DNA of 64,000 bases from Candidatus Yanofskybacteria bacterium RIFCSPHIGHO2_01_FULL_43_32. GTDB lineage: Bacteria > Patescibacteriota > Minisyncoccia > 2-02-FULL-40-12 > GWA2-44-9. The stretch covers positions 172,514 through 236,513 of the forward strand of contig MGJF01000002.1 in assembly GCA_001794125.1 (NCBI GenBank). Direction: 5' to 3'. Under the pieces are notes generated by a model. The model searched no databases, was not told the DNA's origin, and was given only the letters and a program-made list of their open reading frames with translations. Below, piece by piece: positions 508 to 60,283 of this stretch. The position numbers and the translations under genes are program-made. The number at the start of each line of letters is the position of its first letter. Positions within the stretch are counted from its first letter, which is position 1.

Positions 508-649
508 AAACAAAAAGGGCCACATTGGCCTCTAAAAACGATGAACCCCGTGTTGCAACACGGGGGGGCTTTTGACGCAGGCATCTGTCCGTGAGGGGAC
601 CAGATGTGCAGTTCCTGCCGCCGGGCCTGCCCATGAACCCGGTCTCACG
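508..649 (-). ncRNA. candidate small RNA (~140 nt) bounded by a promoter and a terminator on the minus strand; identity unknown
   Basis: The minus strand carries TTGACA, an 18-nt spacer and TATACT (plus coords ~657-686). A GC hairpin ggccaatgtggcc followed by cuuuuuguuu lies at plus ~508-531. The segment between them is GC-rich with nested helices (GCAGGC/GCCUGC, CAUCUG/CAGAUG, CGUGAG/CUCACG). The ORFs here look like junk. Confidence 0.3.
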
Positions 650-956
650 ATATAACCAGTATATCATACTCGAATTAATATGTCAAGAGGGCGCAGTCCT
701 GTTGCTTTTATGTCACTTTGATGAGACGACAGATGTAGTTTAAGCGAGCCAGCCATATACCCCCAGGGAGAACTTGCGCAGGCATTTCGGCTTGGTTCTG
801 CGAAATGCCGAGCATGTAGATAGCGCCGAGCCGCTGGAGCGAGGCGACTATCGGTCGAGTCGGGGGTATGTGGCTGGGGGCGAATTAGAAAAATGATGGG
901 ACAGAGCGAAGTCACAGATATATAGTTGAAGTCTAAATTTTTGATATAATAATGCT

Positions 957-2099: not shown

Positions 2100-3089
2100 A
2101 TGGAAATCAGAAAAAACATAATCCTTGCGCCGTATACGACCCTTGGGATTGGCGGGCCGGCGAGGTATTTTTGCGAAGTTGGGAGCGTTGATGACCTAAA
2201 GAGCGCGCTGAAATTTTCAAAAGAAAATAGTTTGCGTTTTTTTATTCTGGGCGGAGGAAGCAACATCCTGATTTCCGATAAGGGATTTGACGGGCTGGTT
2301 ATCAAGATGGAAATTAAGGGTCGGGAATTTAAAGACGAACTTTTAATCGTTGGAGCCGGTGAAAATTGGGACGAAGTTGTTGTCGCGGCCGTGGAGCGAG
2401 GTCTTGGTGGCATAGAAAATCTGTCATTGATTCCTGGCACGGCCGGAGCGGCGGTTTGCCAGAATATCGGCGCTTATGGTGTTGAGCTGAAAGATGTTCT
2501 TGAAAGTTGCGAGGTTATGGATGCCAACTTCGGCAAGACCAAAATCCTGACCAACGCCAATTGTTGTTTTGGTTACAGAGACAGTGTGTTTAAAAGCGAC
2601 AGCAGTTTAATGGTTTTGAAAGTGATTCTTAAATTATCAAAAAATTATAAGTCGAATATCGAATATCCGGATCTGGCCAATTTGTTTGACGGGAAGACGC
2701 CGGCAATATCGGAGGTCAGGGAAGCTGTTATAAAGATAAGGAGAAGCAAACTTCCTTACCCGGACGAAATCGGAAATGCCGGTTCGTTTTTCAAAAATCC
2801 GGTTGTAGCGGCAGAACATTTTGAAAAGATAATCCTGAACCACCCCGGCTTAAAAGGGTTCAGATTGCCAGACGGGTCAGTAAAATTATCTGCCGCCCAG
2901 TTGACAGAAAAATGCGGCTGGAAAGGAAAAATATGGGGCAATGTCGGAGTCTCAAATAAACACTCTTTAGTTCTGGTCAATTATGGCAAGGGAACAGCGG
3001 GAGAGGTGGCTAATCTCGCCGAGGATATAAAAAGGTCGGTAAAAGATGGGTTTGGGGTGAAATTGGAGCCGGAAGTTGAGGTGATTTAA
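2100..3089 (+). CDS. murB: UDP-N-acetylenolpyruvoylglucosamine reductase
   Basis: LAPYTTLGIGGPARYF ... FILGGGSNIL ... GAYGVEL and a C-terminal MurB domain (SAAQLTEKCGWKG). Confidence 0.9.
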   Translation: MEIRKNIILAPYTTLGIGGPARYFCEVGSVDDLKSALKFSKENSLRFFILGGGSNILISDKGFDGLVIKMEIKGREFKDELLIVGAGENWDEVVVAAVERGLGGIENLSLIPGTAGAAVCQNIGAYGVELKDVLESCEVMDANFGKTKILTNANCCFGYRDSVFKSDSSLMVLKVILKLSKNYKSNIEYPDLANLFDGKTPAISEVREAVIKIRRSKLPYPDEIGNAGSFFKNPVVAAEHFEKIILNHPGLKGFRLPDGSVKLSAAQLTEKCGWKGKIWGNVGVSNKHSLVLVNYGKGTAGEVANLAEDIKRSVKDGFGVKLEPEVEVI

Positions 3090-3096
3090 GGTGGGC

Positions 3097-3125
3097 TTGA
3101 CTTTATGGTCTGACTTTGCTATACT
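3097..3125 (+). promoter_or_regulatory. sigma70-type promoter (TTGACT, 17-nt spacer, TATACT)
   Basis: -35 TTGACT at 3097-3102, a 17-nt spacer, and -10 TATACT at 3120-3125. It sits just after the murB stop and is read directly from the sequence. Confidence 0.45.
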
Positions 3126-3131
3126 GTATAG

Positions 3132-3815
3132 ACAATCAGTTCTTTACATAGGGCCTCATAAAAAGGGCCCGAAAAAAACCAGTAAATACCTCATTATCCA
3201 GGCATTCAAGTAAGATATATTTGGCCTTTAAGGACATAGACATTTGTAGAAGTATTTCATGATTAGTTCTCAAGTTGTATGATTTGCTGGTTTTTTTCGG
3301 GCCCATCTATGCCCAACAAGATGGCCCGGCGCAGTCCTTATACCCAAGACGGGACATGCGGAAGGAGTTAACATGCTCCTCTGTGTGTGACTGCGCCGCG
3401 GCCTCAGTATCGGCAGGACAAAGTTGCCTGCCGACCCTCGGCGGAAAGTGGTGTTGACGAAGAGGGCAACAACAAAACCACACCGCCGCCAGGCGCCGAC
3501 TGGGGGAAAATACCCGGCCGGTCTTAGACGGCCGCTCCGCGCCGCGAAAATTCGCGCGAAGCGGCCGTCATCCACGTCAGCATTCCGGGAATGGTGGATA
3601 ACCCGGGTCTCGCCGACCAATAAGTGCGGGATTTTCAACCACTCGGGAGAGGCGTATCGTCTCTCCCGTCCAAACCTTTCTCGCCCAGGCATAACGCAAA
3701 GAAGGGAGGGTGAGCGGTTGGAAACTTAGCGGGGAAGCCCGCGGTAAAAATACTTCGCTTTGGCAAGGTGTGCGATACACCTTCCACGGGCCCTAACGGG
3801 CCTGTTTTCTTTTGT
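3132..3815 (+). ncRNA. candidate large structured non-coding RNA (~680 nt), identity unknown
   Basis: Bounded by the 3097-3125 promoter and the 3789-3815 terminator. The segment 3270-3800 is ~60% GC in a ~40% GC genome, and every ORF on both strands translates to Arg/Pro-rich junk. An 18-bp long-range inverted repeat pairs 3165-3182 with 3287-3304. Strong GC helices are present, e.g. gacggccgctccgcg...cgcgaagcggccgtc with a cgcgaaaattcgcg apex, and cggcgg...ccgccg. Confidence 0.3.
3789..3815 (+). terminator. intrinsic terminator (ggccc-taac-gggcc then a U-run)
   Basis: A 5-bp GC stem with a taac loop followed by tgttttcttttgttt. It is oriented for a plus-strand transcript even though the next gene is on the minus strand. 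Confidence 0.5.
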
Positions 3816-3822
3816 TTAAAAA

Positions 3823-5595
3823 TTACTGTGTAATATGCCAGACGAAGATGGAGTTGCCGATGTCGGCGACGGGTTTGCAAGAATCAAGCCAGGCGTAACT
3901 GGTTTCCGGTTTTTCTCTTGAGCCCATGAAAAACGATTTAGAAACGGCAATATATCCGCCGCCGGGATTATCCGCGAGAAATTCTCGCGCGTTTTTGTAC
4001 CTGCCGGCGTTTATCCAGACATATTTACTTCCAAGGTAGAAACCGGCGTCAGCCCAGCCGAAATAATCCAAACTGATCTTGGTGATTTTATTCTTATCTA
4101 CCCAATCGGCAAGACGCTTTGCATCTTGTCCCCAATCCACATTTGAATCTACTGCGTATAAGTATCCGCCTTTGGGTCCGCCTGCGGCCTGATTGAAATA
4201 AGTGAGATAATGGGGAAAAACATTTAAGTTTTCAAACAAATACCAACCGAGCAAAACGGCAATTAACCAGCAGGTCGCAACATATTGTTTGCGGCTTATA
4301 TTTTTTAACCCGTTTTCAATGCTTGTAAGTTGTCCGGCAAGAAGAATGTAAACAAAACCGTATATCGGCATCAAATGCCTTACGCCGATGTTTAAGTTGG
4401 CTTTTATGCTGGCATACCAATAGATGGCAAGCCAAACAAGCATTGAAAATTCGGTAAAATGGTTTTTTAGCCAGTGTGTCAATTTGTATCTGTTCGGTTT
4501 AAAAATAACCGCTAAATTCAACAAAACCATTACAGCCAGTCCCCAGAACGCCAATGGTTCTTTTATGAAATAAACGACAGGGAAGTATTTCTTCCAGGCG
4601 GTTTGTTTGATTTCTCCTAAAAAATAAGTCGTGTTTCCGCCGACACTTCTTTGGGTTACCATCAACAAACCCAGGCTGTATTGGCTTAGAGCGCGTATAT
4701 AAGGTTTGTCCGAAGCCCACACTACTTTATCGGCAATAGACCTGTTTCCGTAACTGTTAAGATAATAAGTTGTGTCGGTTTTTTGTCTTGCCACCGGGTA
4801 ATTTATCACATGAAGGCCGTATACCGGCCAGACAACCGCCAGATAGCCCAGAACAATAATTGCGACAGTAAAAAATAAAGTTTTGGCAACAGAATATATT
4901 TTATTATGCATGGCTCGTCCTGAATTTATTGAATGGATTAGTCCCCAAGAAATTGCGAGAATAATAAACAGAGGATTTAAAAGGAACAATGAAAATTTGG
5001 TCAGTTGCGCAATTCCAAAAGCAATCATGGCTATGGTAAAATTGGTTTTAGTTTGGTTTTGGAGAAACCGTATAAAAAAATAAGTCCCTAATAATATTCC
5101 GAATAATGCCGGGACGTCAGTGGTCACAAAACGGCTGTGGGCCATAACGGTGGGGGAAAAAGAAAACATAAAAACGGCAATCAGCGCCGCCTTGTCGCCG
5201 TATAGTTTCCGAGTCCAATAAAAAATAATTATCGCCGAAAGAATAAAGAACAAAACCATCGGAAGTTTGGCGATTCTTGTCATCAGGATAGCGTCATTTC
5301 CGGAATTAAAAATAAGGTTTCTTCCGAAATTCCATTGGCCGTTGATGTCGCCGGTCCAGAACTGTGTTTTAAATGCTGACTGGTTTAAAGATAAAAAGCT
5401 CAAGGCAAACCCGGCCAGATCCTTGACTAAGGGAGGATGCTCCGGGTTTAATCGAAAATCACCTTTCTGAACATAAGAATATCCCGCTCCGATGTGGGGA
5501 ATTTCGTCTACTATGGGCGAGTCGTTCCAGACGCTAATAACCGCCAGGATGGCGGCTGAAACAATTATAGTTATCGCTATAAATTTTATTCTCAT
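3823..5595 (-). CDS. integral membrane glycosyltransferase, family 39/83 (ArnT/PMT-like)
   Basis: Many TM helices. It has the N-terminal conserved motif DEIPHIGAGYSYVQ...NPEHPPLVKDLAGFALSF, matching the DE...HPPL signature of GT-C mannosyl/arabinosyl transferases. Confidence 0.7.
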   Translation of the reverse strand: MRIKFIAITIIVSAAILAVISVWNDSPIVDEIPHIGAGYSYVQKGDFRLNPEHPPLVKDLAGFALSFLSLNQSAFKTQFWTGDINGQWNFGRNLIFNSGNDAILMTRIAKLPMVLFFILSAIIIFYWTRKLYGDKAALIAVFMFSFSPTVMAHSRFVTTDVPALFGILLGTYFFIRFLQNQTKTNFTIAMIAFGIAQLTKFSLFLLNPLFIILAISWGLIHSINSGRAMHNKIYSVAKTLFFTVAIIVLGYLAVVWPVYGLHVINYPVARQKTDTTYYLNSYGNRSIADKVVWASDKPYIRALSQYSLGLLMVTQRSVGGNTTYFLGEIKQTAWKKYFPVVYFIKEPLAFWGLAVMVLLNLAVIFKPNRYKLTHWLKNHFTEFSMLVWLAIYWYASIKANLNIGVRHLMPIYGFVYILLAGQLTSIENGLKNISRKQYVATCWLIAVLLGWYLFENLNVFPHYLTYFNQAAGGPKGGYLYAVDSNVDWGQDAKRLADWVDKNKITKISLDYFGWADAGFYLGSKYVWINAGRYKNAREFLADNPGGGYIAVSKSFFMGSREKPETSYAWLDSCKPVADIGNSIFVWHITQ

Positions 5596-6677
5596 TTAAA
5601 GTACCTCCAGTATTCCATAAATCCGACAGAAAACAGGAAAATAATCATAACCAATGCGGTTATGGCATGAGCCTCGTGTTTAGAATGGGTGTCACGCATT
5701 CCGTACCATGAGCTTAATTTGTTGAAGAACCACCAGATCCCCCGAGCGGTGAAAATCATTACTACCGGCAGAGCTCCGATAGTCAACAAGGCATCAGGCG
5801 CCGTGGCGGACAAAAATCCGGGGATAAGCGTCACAAAAAACCACGCAAATAAAAGAGTGTGGGCGGTTGAAAAATGGCCATGTTTGCGTTTTAGCCAATG
5901 GATAAATTCGTTAATAAAACCAACTGCAAAAAATACCCCTATCGGCCAGGGAAGCATGGGGCTCGGAGTGGTTTCCTGGCTGTGCTTTAGCCAGCCGAGG
6001 AACTCTGTAGAGCCGGTGGTATTGTGGGCCGGATTCCAGTCGCCGGTGAAGTTGAACATTCCTAAAGTTTTAACAACGTTATTTATTGTCAGCGAGTTCG
6101 GAATCCTTGCCAATAATTCTTCTTGATGCTGCCAGAAGTATATTCCGAGAGGCAGGGCAACAATAAAAATCGTGAAAGCAAAAACAACGAACCCTTGAAG
6201 AAGTTTTGTCTTGGCGTATTCGTATTTATCATGGCTAAAGTCTTTTTTCAGATACCACCAGTAGTTTAGGAATAAAAATATGGTGATGATCGGGGCGACA
6301 CAAAGGCTGTTTGTATAAAACCCAAGCCCTCCGAAAATGCCGGCTACAAAAAAGTAAGGCAAGCTGGCTTTTTTGAGCCCCTTCCCAAGAAGATAGAAAG
6401 AGTAAACAAGCGTAAACGGAATTATTATTGCCGCAGATTCCATTCTTGAAAAATTAACGTGCCAGAAAGATGTTGCCGTCAAAAAGCTTGCGATGGCCGC
6501 TAAACGCCACTCAAACAGTTCTTTGACTAAAAAATAAAGCCCGATAACAGTGAGGATTCCCACGGTTGCCGAGGATATTCTTAAGGTGTCCAATTGATAC
6601 AGACGAAAAAAGGCCGCAACGCCGACGATAATTAAAAAAATGGCCAACTCTTGTTTTTTTGTCTTTAGCATACCCAT
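5592..6677 (-). CDS. polytopic membrane protein, possible GT-C glycosyltransferase paralog or N-terminal module
   Basis: A 361-aa protein with ~10 TM helices. Its stop overlaps the start of the downstream GT39 gene (ATGA overlap at 5592-5595), which suggests translational coupling. No DE motif is seen. Confidence 0.45.
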   Translation of the reverse strand: MGMLKTKKQELAIFLIIVGVAAFFRLYQLDTLRISSATVGILTVIGLYFLVKELFEWRLAAIASFLTATSFWHVNFSRMESAAIIIPFTLVYSFYLLGKGLKKASLPYFFVAGIFGGLGFYTNSLCVAPIITIFLFLNYWWYLKKDFSHDKYEYAKTKLLQGFVVFAFTIFIVALPLGIYFWQHQEELLARIPNSLTINNVVKTLGMFNFTGDWNPAHNTTGSTEFLGWLKHSQETTPSPMLPWPIGVFFAVGFINEFIHWLKRKHGHFSTAHTLLFAWFFVTLIPGFLSATAPDALLTIGALPVVMIFTARGIWWFFNKLSSWYGMRDTHSKHEAHAITALVMIIFLFSVGFMEYWRYFK

Positions 6678-6832: not shown

Positions 6833-7261
6833 ATGTCCGACAGAAAGTTAATTATAATCATGACCTGTATCCTTGTTGTACCGTCAGTGGCCTTAGTAGC
6901 GATTATGGTTCTTATAGGCTTGGGTCGTGGCGACGGCATCGAACCCGGCAAGACATACGCCCTCGCTTACTCTTACAAGGCCACGATCAAGGGCGGGACG
7001 CCGGCTCGCGTGTTTGACTTCTCGGACAGGAGCCTTCCACGGACTTCCGTCGTGGTTCCGCTTCGTGATGACCGTGGCATGCCGCTGGTTGAAGAAATCT
7101 CGAGCATGCCTCAGAGCACGGTTCGGAAGGTCGTCGCCAGTGTTCCAACTCGGACAGTAGAAGGTGTGACCTATCCCGGCTACACTTACGTGGTGTGGCA
7201 ATACCACCTTAGCGTGGTTGGGTCGCAGAGCGTGGTCCCCGAAGTCATTCCCGGCAAGTGA
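6833..7261 (+). CDS. hypothetical small membrane-anchored protein carried on a GC-rich (probably foreign) segment
   Basis: N-terminal TM helix (IIIMTCILVVPSVALVAIMVLIGL). The ORF is ~60% GC, unlike the flanks. It has its own promoter and a multi-hairpin terminator. Overlapping ORFs on the other strand reflect the GC-rich composition. Confidence 0.4.
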   Translation: MSDRKLIIIMTCILVVPSVALVAIMVLIGLGRGDGIEPGKTYALAYSYKATIKGGTPARVFDFSDRSLPRTSVVVPLRDDRGMPLVEEISSMPQSTVRKVVASVPTRTVEGVTYPGYTYVVWQYHLSVVGSQSVVPEVIPGK

Positions 7262-7269
7262 GCGCAATC

Positions 7270-7326
7270 GCCCCGGAGGGCGTAACCAGAAATCGTGGTT
7301 ACGCTTCCTCCGGAGGCGGTTTTTTG
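7270..7326 (+). terminator. cluster of three GC hairpins ending in a T-run
   Basis: cgccccggagggcg, gtaaccagaaatcgtggttac and cctccggagg are followed by cggttttttg. Confidence 0.45.
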
Positions 7327-7363
7327 ATACTTTGAACTTTTATTGCCAATCATCATTTATCAT

Positions 7364-7452
7364 TTAAGCAACCGGCGGAGGGTGTATGTCTTTTTAAAAT
7401 TAGCAAATTTTTAAAAGGCATACCCCGCAGTATGCATGGAGGTTATGTGAGC
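7364..7452 (+). repeat. copy A of a ~90-nt structured intergenic repeat family (copies at 7364, 28755 and 29622)
   Basis: Shares ttaaRcaaccggcggaggg ... aaaattagYaaRatttt ... gcatRgagSttRtgtgaRc with the other copies. The central stem differs between copies but stays complementary: gtatgtcttttt/aaaaggcatac here versus gtgccccttt/aaaggggcac in copy B. Confidence 0.6.
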
Positions 7453-7516
7453 TGTTAAAAATGATGAGGCAGAGCTTGTGGAATATTGGTTTTTATTTTT
7501 GTGCTACAATTAAACC

Positions 7517-28743: not shown

Positions 28744-28754
28744 TAAATTTTATA

Positions 28755-28844
28755 GTTCACACAAGCTCTATGCGTACGGAGGGAGACGCCTTTTTAAAAA
28801 TTTACTAATTTTGTAAAAAGTGTCTCCCTCCGCCGGTTGCTTAA
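28755..28844 (-). repeat. copy C of the ~90-nt structured repeat, in inverted orientation
   Basis: On the minus strand it reads ttaagcaaccggcggagggagacactttttacaaaattagtaaatttttaaaaaggcgtctccctccgtacgcatagagcttgtgtgaac. The stem is extended relative to copy A (cggagggagac/gtctccctccg). Confidence 0.6.
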
Positions 28845-28915
28845 GTGGTTGGTGGCAACTGGCAATAAAAGTTCAAACTCTCTTCGAAACTGGCTTAAAA
28901 AGCCAGTTTTTGGTC

Positions 28916-29515: not shown

Positions 29516-29621
29516 CGAAAGCGAAAGCGGGCTTTGTCATTTTAATATTAAGCAAGCGTAGCTCTTGCAACTTTATTTCATTTCTACCTTGAATCTTGCT
29601 TATTAATTATCAGCTATAAAC

Positions 29622-29711
29622 TTAAACAACCGGCGGAGGGTGTGCCCCTTTATAAAATTAGCAAGATTTTAGAAAGGGGCACACCGCAGCACGCATGGAG
29701 GTTGTGTGAGC
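29622..29711 (+). repeat. copy B of the ~90-nt structured repeat
   Basis: ttaaacaaccggcggagggtgtgcccctttataaaattagcaagattttagaaaggggcacaccgcagcacgcatggaggttgtgtgagc. A TATAAT box follows, immediately upstream of the next ATG. Confidence 0.6.
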
Positions 29712-29763
29712 AATTGAAATAAGGTGCTGGGTGGAGCGATTTTTTTTATGATATAATGAACCA

Positions 29764-60046: not shown

Positions 60047-60283
60047 GAGAGGGCTTTAAAATATCATGTGTTTAGGCGGGTCCCATGATTCCTAAGTGGT
60101 GGACCTTCCGCCTACGGTAGTATTAAACCACTTGTTTTTAGTAGCGGAGTGCTGGTCGTGCTTTAGCCGACCGATGCTCTCTGTCGGGAGAAATTCATTT
60201 TGAACCCCGCCCTTGAAAAGCATATCAATATTTCTAACGGGAAGGGTTTCAAATAATAGTTAAGCATTGGAACTAAACAGCCG

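Follow-up and report, generated by a model that had tools for sequence, protein, structure and literature searches.

Large structured noncoding RNAs (ncRNAs) of bacteria whose function has not been established are rare, and each one found so far, including OLE, GOLLD, and ROOL, has opened new biology. OLE RNA (Rfam RF01071), ROOL, raiA, and HEARO are large, ornate, lineage-restricted RNAs with many covarying helices, conserved over most of their length, and each was found as a GC-rich or conserved ORF-less intergenic region. OLE also sits in a conserved gene neighborhood that includes membrane proteins. GOLLD RNA (RF01998) is linked to phages and tRNA genes and has one well-conserved half and one half that differs between subgroups. 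Among the housekeeping RNAs, 6S RNA (RF00013) forms a rod in which the paired 5′ and 3′ ends enclose a large central bubble, binds the RNA polymerase holoenzyme, and templates product RNA, and tmRNA (ssrA) is defined by a tRNA-like domain formed by its two ends and by a tag reading frame. To our knowledge, and in the papers that could be searched, almost nothing is reported about ncRNAs of the Candidate Phyla Radiation (CPR), whose genomes are very small. We analyzed a 64-kb stretch of Candidatus Yanofskybacteria DNA (hereafter the window), in which a sequence-only reading had proposed a stand-alone large structured ncRNA of some 680 nt, matching no recognized family, downstream of murB.

The observation was confirmed, as each element listed in that reading is present in the sequence (Table 1). 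The promoter is the only strong promoter-like site between positions 2800 and 4100, and the hairpin of the intrinsic terminator is followed by TTTCTTTTGT on the plus strand. The GC content is 0.575 to 0.625 in 200-nt intervals between 3301 and 3800, against 0.434 for the whole window, although the GC-rich part starts at about 3305 rather than at 3270 as first proposed, because 3270-3304 still belongs to an AU-rich stem. The long-range inverted repeat, first described as 18 bp, is real and longer, with 23 nt that are 96% complementary. The very stable stem noted near 3520-3565 corresponds to the hairpin GACGGCCGCU..CGCGAAAAUUCGCG..AGCGGCCGUC. The 686-nt unit folds at -301 kcal/mol, compared with -225 ± 6 for dinucleotide shuffles (z = -12).

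Table 1. Features of the locus, in window coordinates. L numbers denote homologous loci of the family.
Feature	Position	Strand	Description	Supporting observations
murB	2100-3089	+	Upstream gene	Pfam FAD_binding_4 and MurB_C
Promoter	3097-3125	+	Sigma-70-type, extended -10: TTGACT (3097-3102), 17-nt spacer, TATACT (3120-3125), TG at 3117-3118; inferred transcription start near 3131-3133	10 of 12 matches; same promoter at the same distance in homologs: TTGACTTT...TGCTATAMT in L011, L013, L014, L020, L022, L024, L039, L043, L046 and others; TTTACA-17-TACACT in the second clade
Transcription unit	3131-3815	+	Inferred independently transcribed RNA
Conserved core	3136-3304	+	AU-rich 5′ domain, about 170 nt
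5′ leader	3136-3150	+	UCAGUUCUUUACAUA; one clade reads AAGUUCUUUACAUA and the others read AAGUACCUUUUAUA	Alignment of 31 sequences
P1	3151-3170	+	GGGCCU (3151-3156) can pair with GGGCCC (3165-3170); mutually exclusive with the base of P2	Helix of 6-10 bp in all 26 sequences tested; in ten of them its loop holds hairpin inserts of 18-73 nt
P2 and three-way junction	3165-3304	+	23-bp closing stem, 3165-3187 with 3282-3304; contains an A7:U7 tract	23 pairs, 94.8% of cells paired over 31 sequences, 7 pairs changed on both sides; common U·G and G·U pairs (for example UG:21, GU:17, GU:14)
P3 hairpin	3196-3235	+	P3a, AUCC (3196-3199) with GGAC (3232-3235); P3b, AGGC (3200-3203) with GCCU (3224-3227); 20-nt loop L3 (3204-3223), first 16 nt (AUUCAAGUAAGAUAUA) nearly invariant	Invariant alignment columns; pair 105-142 reads CG:17, UA:6, UG:5; P3a 96% and P3b 91% paired
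P4	3238-3269	+	Variable third arm; GAC (3239-3241) with GUU (3266-3268), further irregular pairing inside	79% paired, 2 pairs changed on both sides; weakest helix
ORF	3270-3692	-	140 codons; called in one GenBank annotation (GCA_001795855.1)
Module A	3305-3434	+	3′ domain; long-range helix 3320-3336 with 3389-3405 enclosing hairpin 3354-3367 with 3376-3388; hairpin UCGGCAGG..CCUGCCGA follows	Shared with L054, L022, L088, L039, L072 and L011 at 74-85% identity; RNAalifold predicts 29 pairs, 7 with compensatory changes
Terminator-like site	3496-3480	-	Inside the 3′ domain
Terminator-like site	3534-3515	-	Inside the 3′ domain
Hairpin	3527-3569	+	GACGGCCGCUCCGCGCCGCGAAAAUUCGCGCGAAGCGGCCGUC, with a GAAA-like apex	Conserved in L011, L019, L054, L046 and L022
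Module C	3584-3668	+	3′ domain; S1, UCCGGG (3584-3589) with CCCGGG (3602-3607), closes loop AAUGGUGGAUAA; GGUGG (3593-3597) in that loop pairs with CCACU (3639-3643), giving an inferred H-type pseudoknot that encloses hairpin 3608-3613 with 3626-3631; hairpin 3644-3654 with 3658-3668 follows	Most widely shared module, in at least 15 family members; S1 covaries: CCGGG/CCCGG, CCGGAG/CUCCGG, CGGGU/ACCCG, CAGGU/ACCUG, CAGGGU/ACCUUG; RNAalifold predicts 23 pairs, 10 with compensatory changes; pseudoknot inferred from two overlapping conserved helices
Module D	3698-3785	+	3′ domain; hairpins GCGGGGAAGCCCGC and AAGGUGUGCGAUACACCUU	90% identical to L019; shared with L039 and L020
Terminator	3786-3815	+	8-bp GC-rich hairpin (3786-3805), ACGGGCCC-UAAC-GGGCCUGU, followed by UUUCUUUUGU; ends 8 nt before the stop codon of the convergent PMT gene	GC-rich hairpin with a U tract ends the RNA in 24 of the 26 other family loci that held enough downstream sequence
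PMT gene	3823-5595	-	Convergent glycosyltransferase gene	Pfam PMT/PMT_2

We next searched for homologs and recovered about 35 distinct ones, all from Candidatus Yanofskybacteria-type loci, a group of ultra-small groundwater bacteria within the Patescibacteria/CPR. They lie between ftsQ/murB and a convergent pair of PMT-family glycosyltransferase genes, and in 24 of the 25 loci whose fetched sequence reaches the next downstream gene, that gene is a convergent PMT1 homolog, even where murB is missing upstream; in L089 it is a PMT2 homolog. A covariance model scored 150 bits on the plus strand of the window and 43 bits on the minus strand, and it found a single copy in the 64 kb. Three related murB loci, two keeping the greA-aspS-serS-ftsQ-murB order and one partly rearranged, none with a PMT pair downstream, gave no match to the covariance model with filters off in the 9 to 11 kb searched in each of those genomes.

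Comparison of the homologs showed that the RNA has two parts that evolve differently. The conserved core is the AU-rich 5′ domain, in which a leader and the P2 stem lead to a three-way junction, one arm of which carries an almost invariant 16-nt core (CAUUCAAGUAAGAUAU) of a 20-nt loop. In contrast, the GC-rich part that had attracted attention in the sequence-only reading is the variable part, a mosaic of hairpin and pseudoknot modules that are shared in different combinations between species. It is nearly absent in some species, with 30 nt in L013 and 116 nt in L050, and reaches 672 nt in L011. The minimal RNA of the L013 type is about 235 nt long.

Covariation supports the helices. Over 31 distinct sequences of the 5′ domain, 93% of cells are paired and 11 pairs changed on both sides (36 cells); 0 of 500 shuffles reached any of the five measures, and a slide control peaked sharply at 0. 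Similar results were obtained in two further covariation analyses of this domain, and compensatory changes were also found in the 3′ modules. The sequences are related and the alignment was fitted to the model structure, so these statistics are optimistic. The common G·U pairs of P2 would be mismatches on the minus strand, which fixes the plus strand as that of the RNA.

A protein-coding function was rejected. The longest stop-free stretch, 140 codons on the minus strand, is reached by 16% of dinucleotide shuffles. Substitutions fall 58/73/61 by codon position, 17 of 20 indels are not multiples of three, tblastn matches jump between frames, and no Pfam family matches. Long stop-free stretches do occur in many homologs, but the plus strand is T-poor (AT skew of +0.24 to +0.28 in two 200-nt intervals of the domain), which depletes stop codons on both strands.

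Searches for recognized families or records returned nothing relevant. Scanning against Rfam 15 (OLE, GOLLD, ROOL, HEARO, raiA, IMES, and all other 4227 families) gave no match at gathering thresholds in the window, only miRNA and sRNA noise at E ≤ 10 in 3000-3900, and nothing relevant at E ≤ 1 in eight homologous loci. ARAGORN identified five tRNAs and no tmRNA in the window. No family member was found in phage or plasmid records or in viral contigs, and literature searches on ncRNAs of CPR, Patescibacteria, and Yanofskybacteria found nothing relevant. An RNase P RNA, which is marked by the P4 pseudoknot with the conserved CR-I, CR-IV, and CR-V sequences, was not supported, as no RNase P model matched at E ≤ 10, and the GGAAAGUCC seen in L024 is only the top of a local hairpin. 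The locus does not have the position of a riboswitch or T-box leader, because the next gene is convergent, and no aptamer or T-box model matched; a switch of another kind is not excluded, however, since mutually exclusive helices exist. A MITE or other repeated mobile element, which would have several copies per genome and terminal inverted repeats flanked by target duplications, is also not supported, as the region is single copy in the 64-kb window, the locus is the same in all species, and the 23-nt inverted repeat covaries as an RNA helix with G·U pairs.

Other possibilities were examined and rejected. A small GC-rich ORF that precedes the RNA in other species has no nucleotide or protein similarity to it and no Pfam match, arguing against a relic of that ORF. 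Pairing of L3 with the leader was excluded because a change in L3 in one clade (GUAAGA to GUUAGA) is not compensated in the leader. A dif site or replication origin was rejected by inspection: the reverse complement of the leader resembles a XerD arm over only 8 to 9 bases, has no second arm, and is not conserved in the other clades, and no skew change is seen at the site. With respect to antisense targets, no complement of L3 or of the leader exists in the window beyond chance, and RNAduplex predictions against 93 translation-initiation regions were no better than with shuffled probes.

Thus, the proposal of a stand-alone large structured ncRNA outside the described families is supported, by the Rfam scan, the homolog and covariation analysis, and the coding analysis that had been named in advance, with the refinement that the unit is not uniformly conserved. 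We propose with reasonable confidence that 3131-3815 is an independently transcribed, noncoding, highly structured RNA gene, the first described member of a lineage-specific family not present in Rfam 15, with the 5′ domain as its functional core. The analysis itself demonstrates that a conserved sigma-70-type promoter and an intrinsic terminator delimit the unit, that the conserved core comprises the leader, P1, P2, and the three-way junction presenting L3, and that the 3′ domain is a fast-evolving mosaic that can shrink to 30 nt. The transcript, its ends, and any processing are inferred from sequence alone, as is the mechanism. Most likely, the RNA acts in trans and L3 is recognized sequence-specifically by a conserved partner, a protein or another RNA, much as the conserved loops of housekeeping ribonucleoprotein RNAs are, while the 3′ domain would be an accessory scaffold or stability domain rather than the active part. 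The constant location of the RNA next to the same genes, and its absence from the three related loci that also lack the PMT genes, fit a local function as well as a trans function. The competing GGGCYC boxes may allow P1 to form between the first and second boxes, together with pairing of the third and fourth, or to give way to a full-length P2, which could represent a four-way junction or a conformational switch; that P1 and full-length P2 alternate is inference. The near-perfect P2 is also a plausible RNase III substrate, and cleavage there would release the junction RNA of roughly 100 nt.

A more far-reaching reading is possible, although it remains tentative. In this view, the RNA represents a previously undescribed class of large bacterial ncRNA from the CPR, in which four interchangeable GGGCYC boxes flank a small AU-rich three-way-junction core presenting the nearly invariant loop and form either a four-way junction or a long rod, in effect an RNA switch by branch migration. 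The core would be fused to a freely exchangeable GC-rich array of hairpin and pseudoknot modules, and the RNA may act together with the neighboring membrane glycosyltransferases on the cell envelope of these ultra-small epibionts.

The main rival, which we consider unlikely, is that the RNA is functionally tied to the convergent PMT operon. It might be a cis-antisense or transcriptional-interference element, with PMT transcripts running antisense into the 3′ domain or RNA transcripts reading through the terminator into PMT, or the 5′ domain with its competing helices might act as a sensor that sets how much read-through occurs. The constant PMT neighborhood, the absence of the RNA from the three related loci without a PMT pair, the proximity of the terminator to the PMT stop codon, the minus-strand terminator-like sites in the 3′ domain, and the mutually exclusive helices are in line with this view; in addition, the terminator has no A tract on its upstream side, so it would not stop the PMT transcript. 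However, in many species 300 to 900 nt of unrelated sequence separate the terminator from the PMT stop codon, so overlap is not conserved, and the terminator is strong and conserved. An antisense role would not explain a nearly invariant loop core and a conserved three-way junction far from the PMT gene, and because gene order is conserved across this whole region in this lineage, adjacency may be only inheritance.

It is also improbable, to a slightly greater degree, that only the 5′ domain is functional and that the GC-rich 3′ part is passenger sequence, such as inserted structured or mobile modules or horizontally acquired GC-rich DNA, carried without a function of its own. The variable length and mosaic content of the 3′ domain would fit, as would the small GC-rich ORF that the same junction collects in eight loci, the unassigned inserts after the terminator, and the small hairpin and AT-rich inserts inside the 5′ domain of some species. 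Nevertheless, the modules keep their helices through compensatory changes, the pseudoknot module occurs across clades, and none of the modules is repeated elsewhere in the window, which is not what active mobile repeats would show.

A very diverged 6S, RNase P, tmRNA, or SRP RNA that the Rfam models no longer recognize is very unlikely. The strong promoter and terminator, the long helix with conserved unpaired sequence, the variable number of pseudoknot-like modules, as in tmRNA, and the variable inserts after the 3′ end, as at ssrA genes, could be cited in its favor. However, none of these models matched even at E ≤ 10, and there is no tRNA-like domain, no P4/CR-I motif set, and no SRP domain IV motif. 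The RNA is also missing from the corresponding loci of related Patescibacteria that share the upstream genes, within the 9 to 11 kb searched in each of those genomes, and a universal RNA would not be expected to be so narrowly distributed. A protein-coding gene or decayed pseudogene is less likely still given the substitution, indel, and ORF-length results.

A 250- to 900-nt RNA kept at one locus across a whole lineage, at a GC content 15 points above the genome, is likely to do something important for these cells. The family also offers a natural experiment, as the same conserved core occurs with almost no 3′ domain or with up to 670 nt of it, and the helices already mapped by covariation define constructs from which probing, pull-downs, and structure work could start.

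Compared with the described systems, the RNA resembles 6S RNA in being a stand-alone gene with a strong promoter and a long helix enclosing conserved unpaired nucleotides, with a core of about 170 to 190 nt. Unlike in 6S RNA, its ends do not pair, the leader and a long 3′ extension lie outside the closing stem, and the core is a three-way junction with a 20-nt hairpin loop rather than a rod with a central bubble. It shares with tmRNA its own promoter and terminator, a variable set of pseudoknot or hairpin modules, and variable DNA just after the 3′ end, but it has no tRNA-like domain, no acceptor pairing of the ends, no CCA end, and no plausible tag reading frame. Its size is similar to that of GOLLD, and it likewise has a conserved and a variable part, but it is chromosomal and sits at one fixed locus. 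With OLE, ROOL, raiA, and HEARO, it shares large size, lineage restriction, and an origin as an ORF-less intergenic region with covarying helices, without detectable similarity in sequence or structure, and no dedicated partner-protein gene was identified next to it. Whereas those RNAs are conserved over most of their length, only about 170 nt are conserved here and the rest varies from 30 to 672 nt.

The sequence-only reading had described a promoter, an intrinsic terminator, a GC-rich interior, a long-range inverted repeat and very stable helices between murB and a convergent gene, and this observation was confirmed in every element; the one correction is that the GC-rich part begins at about 3305 rather than 3270. 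The murB gene (Pfam FAD_binding_4 and MurB_C) and a convergent gene for a PMT-family membrane glycosyltransferase (Pfam PMT and PMT_2) are separated by a gap of 733 nt. A consensus scan revealed one strong promoter-like site in this gap and a plus-strand terminator. While the window as a whole is 43.4% GC, the GC fraction is 0.575 to 0.625 in the 200-nt windows between 3301 and 3800. As RNA, the unit folds at -301 kcal/mol, compared with -225 +/- 6 for dinucleotide shuffles (z = -12), and the other strand folds nearly as well (z = -11), as expected for Watson-Crick helices.

Coordinates of the features of the locus and of other elements observed in the window and in homologous loci (designated L plus a number)
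Feature	Position	Strand	Description
Putative minus-strand small RNA	window 510-690	-	about 130 nt, in the ORF-less serS-ftsQ spacer (272-956); promoter TTGACA-17-TATACT with TG at 686-658; terminator-like hairpin with a T tract at 530-518
GC-rich element	window 741-884; L072 3395-3535; L022 498-632	+ (window)	about 145 nt
murB	window 2100-3089	+	
Promoter	window 3097-3125	+	TTGACT-17-TATACT, 10 of 12 matches, TG before the -10
5' domain	window 3136-3304	+	leader, P1, P2, three-way junction with P3 and P4
P2 (inverted repeat)	window 3165-3187 with 3282-3304	+	23 nt, 96% complementary
P3	window 3196-3203 with 3224-3235	+	AUCC-AGGC with GCCU-nnnn-GGAU
3' domain	window 3305-3785	+	481 nt
Shared segment of the 3' domain	window 3311-3434	+	shared with L054, L022, L088, L039 and L072
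Shared segment of the 3' domain	window 3527-3679	+	shared with L019, L054, L011 and L046; core 3585-3668 also in L072, L089, L015, L101, L014 and L039, parts of it in L022
Shared segment of the 3' end	window 3698-3815	+	shared with L019 and L039 by BLAST, with L020 by inspection
Terminator hairpin	window 3786-3805	+	8 bp, followed by TTTCTTTTGT
PMT-family gene	window 3823-5595	-	convergent
Hairpin element around GUGCUUUAGCC	window 5967-6008 and 60143-60184; L020 5133-5176		about 42 nt
GC-rich ORF	window 6833-7261	+	142 aa, about 60% GC
Intergenic repeat family	window 7326-7460, 28752-28882 and 29620-29719		about 90-130 nt, 75-83% identity, direct and inverted
GC-rich small ORF	L028 5258-5542; L030 5228-5443; also L035, L043, L082, L087, L095 and L101		70-94 aa, about 65% GC
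Sequence between RNA terminator and PMT stop codon	L011 6460-6868; also L022, L023, L024, L027/L028 and L030		300-900 nt, species-specific

We next asked whether the unit belongs to a known RNA family. A covariance-model scan of the window against all 4227 Rfam 15 families found only five tRNAs, and a permissive scan of positions 3000-3900 listed only miRNA and sRNA noise, at 11.5 to 21.2 bits against gathering scores of 40 to 268 bits. Eight homologous loci were equally negative, and ARAGORN found no tmRNA. Phage and plasmid records gave no match, a scan of viral contigs for the conserved motif of the family gave only chance hits, and literature searches on CPR ncRNAs returned nothing relevant.

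The exact MurB protein occurs on Rifle-aquifer metagenome contigs and in two MAGs (GCA_001795855.1 and GCA_001794385.1), and its relatives are labelled Candidatus Yanofskybacteria. The intergenic region is 100% identical in nine contigs of this population, and loci of MurB orthologs at 62 to 73% identity carry a recognizably homologous intergenic region, from which we derived the near-invariant motif AGGCAYTCAAGTAAGATAT. A scan of one genome per GTDB species found this motif in five Yanofskybacteria MAGs and in one MAG labelled Saccharibacteria, whose locus is otherwise of the same type. A metagenome scan added about 25 more distinct members, the remaining hits, mostly from human gut, being a coding sequence that matches by chance. 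In total, about 35 distinct sequences were obtained.

The promoter is conserved in the family, reading TTGACTTT..TGCTATAMT in one clade and TTTACA-17-TACACT with TG in another, and a GC-rich hairpin with a U tract ends the RNA in 24 of the 26 other loci that held enough downstream sequence. The 5' domain is conserved throughout. It comprises a leader (AAGUUCUUUACAUA or AAGUACCUUUUAUA), a short helix P1, the 23-bp P2, and a three-way junction with P3 and P4. P3 caps a 20-nt loop, L3, whose core CAUUCAAGUAAGAUAU is almost invariant, although the species involved have MurB proteins that are only 55 to 70% identical. AT-rich inserts of 60 to 200 nt interrupt this domain at different points in L047, L093, L095 and L054. 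Those of L047, L093 and L095 share motifs (UUUCGUAACGAAAUU in L093 and L095, and GAAUAGUU..ACUAUUC in L047 and L093, L047 having only the variant UUUUCGUUGAGAAAAUU of the first), which recalls the inserts known in CPR ribosomal RNA genes.

Covariation supports the helices of the 5' domain. On an Infernal alignment of 31 distinct sequences, 93% of cells form standard pairs, and 11 of 35 pairs (36 cells) changed on both sides. None of 500 shuffles reached any of the measures, and sliding the 3' partners by one column dropped pairing to 56 to 57%. Counts based on MAFFT alignments agree. These statistics must be read with the caveats that the sequences are related, that the alignment was fitted to the model, and that P4 is weak (79% paired). 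P2 holds many U·G and G·U pairs, which would be A·C mismatches on the other strand, and the covariance model scores 150 bits on the plus strand and 43 bits on the minus strand. The RNA is therefore read from the plus strand.

In contrast, the 3' domain is not conserved as a whole. Its length is 30 nt in L013, 116 nt in L050 and 311 to 672 nt in most members, and its GC content is always 56 to 63% wherever it exceeds 100 nt. The domain of the window is a mosaic of segments shared with different sets of loci. The modules nevertheless keep their helices, with 29 predicted pairs, 7 of them compensatory, in module A, and 23 predicted pairs, 10 of them compensatory, in module C. Module C contains a hairpin whose loop AAUGGUGGAUAA is closed by a covarying stem (CCGGG/CCCGG, CCGGAG/CUCCGG, CGGGU/ACCCG and CAGGU/ACCUG), and the GGUGG in that loop is complementary to a conserved downstream CAACCACU, which implies an H-type pseudoknot. 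This module occurs in at least 15 members of several clades.

Four GGGCYC-type boxes flank the core, of which boxes 2 and 3 form the base of P2. Box 1 pairs with box 2 over 6 to 10 bp in all 26 sequences tested, with hairpin inserts of 18 to 73 nt sitting in that loop in ten of them, and box 3 pairs with a downstream box 4 over 5 to 10 bp, with U-A versus C-G compensation. These helices exclude the basal 7 to 10 bp of P2, so that the arrangement could be a four-way junction or two alternative conformers, between which covariation cannot decide because boxes 1 and 3, and boxes 2 and 4, resemble each other. A hairpin element around GUGCUUUAGCC occurs twice in the window, one copy lying inside the second PMT ORF, and similar hairpins are inserted in the P1 loops of L014, L019, L020, L039 and L067. 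This may be a small mobile hairpin.

Analyses of coding potential rejected a protein-coding gene. A 140-codon minus-strand ORF, annotated in one MAG, is no longer than expected, as 16% of dinucleotide shuffles reach this length, because the plus strand is T-poor. Substitutions between the window and seven homologous segments fall 58, 73 and 61 on the three codon positions, and 17 of 20 indels are not multiples of three. tblastn matches jump between frames, and Pfam finds nothing.

We then examined the genomic context. In 24 of 25 loci whose fetched sequence reaches the next downstream gene, that gene is a convergent PMT1 homolog, and in L089 it is a PMT2 homolog. Upstream, the RNA follows murB, ftsQ where murB is absent, or a GC-rich small ORF that eight loci carry and the window lacks. 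The latter ORF family sits between murB or ftsQ and the RNA, has a good Shine-Dalgarno site, often shares the motif DPLRRFxPLDEV and the ending RAxPR, and has no Pfam match. Three related loci (MurB 51 to 54% identical) lack the PMT pair downstream. Two of them keep the greA-aspS-serS-ftsQ-murB order and the third (L029) is partly rearranged, and none matches the covariance model, even with filters off. The RNA and the PMT pair therefore appear and disappear together at this locus, although this is based on only three negative loci and could reflect shared ancestry alone. In several species, unassigned sequence separates the RNA terminator from the PMT stop codon, and the junction looks like a hot spot for insertions.

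Other elements were observed in the window. The serS-ftsQ spacer holds a near-perfect minus-strand promoter and a terminator-like hairpin, which together suggest a small RNA without an Rfam match. The GC-rich element of about 145 nt folds into a three-way junction closed by GCCAGCCAUAUACCCCC/GGGGGUAUGUGGCUGG (MFE -73 kcal/mol, z = -4.9). It is 91% identical in two other species, L072, whose MurB is about 62% identical, and L022, and sits at different positions there. It is either mobile or under strong constraint; it has no Rfam match and is absent from viral contigs. The 142-aa ORF has a Shine-Dalgarno site, a hydrophobic N-terminus and no Pfam match, and is conserved in the near-identical contigs. 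A repeat family is also present in intergenic regions of the window.

The interpretation of the sequence-only reading, that of a stand-alone large structured ncRNA matching no known family, was supported. The analysis establishes a conserved, plus-strand, non-coding, structured unit, present once in the 64-kb window, with conserved transcription signals and belonging to a family absent from Rfam, its expression being inferred from those signals. It is also an inference that the conserved 5' domain is the functional core and that L3 is a sequence-specific recognition element for a conserved partner, that the 3' domain is an accessory, exchangeable scaffold or stability domain, and that P2, as a near-perfect 23-bp duplex, may be an RNase III site. 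Searches of the window revealed no target for L3 or the leader. We thus consider it highly probable that this is a genuine ncRNA of a new family, whereas the specific reading as a trans-acting ribonucleoprotein is no more than tentative. Among the alternatives, a local role tied to the PMT operon ranks first, followed by a functional 5' domain with passenger 3' sequence, and then by a diverged housekeeping RNA. A coding gene is the least likely. This family, and its build of a small conserved core plus a hypervariable GC-rich module array, is not described in Rfam 15 or in the literature that we could search, but large, lineage-restricted structured bacterial ncRNAs are known as a general kind.
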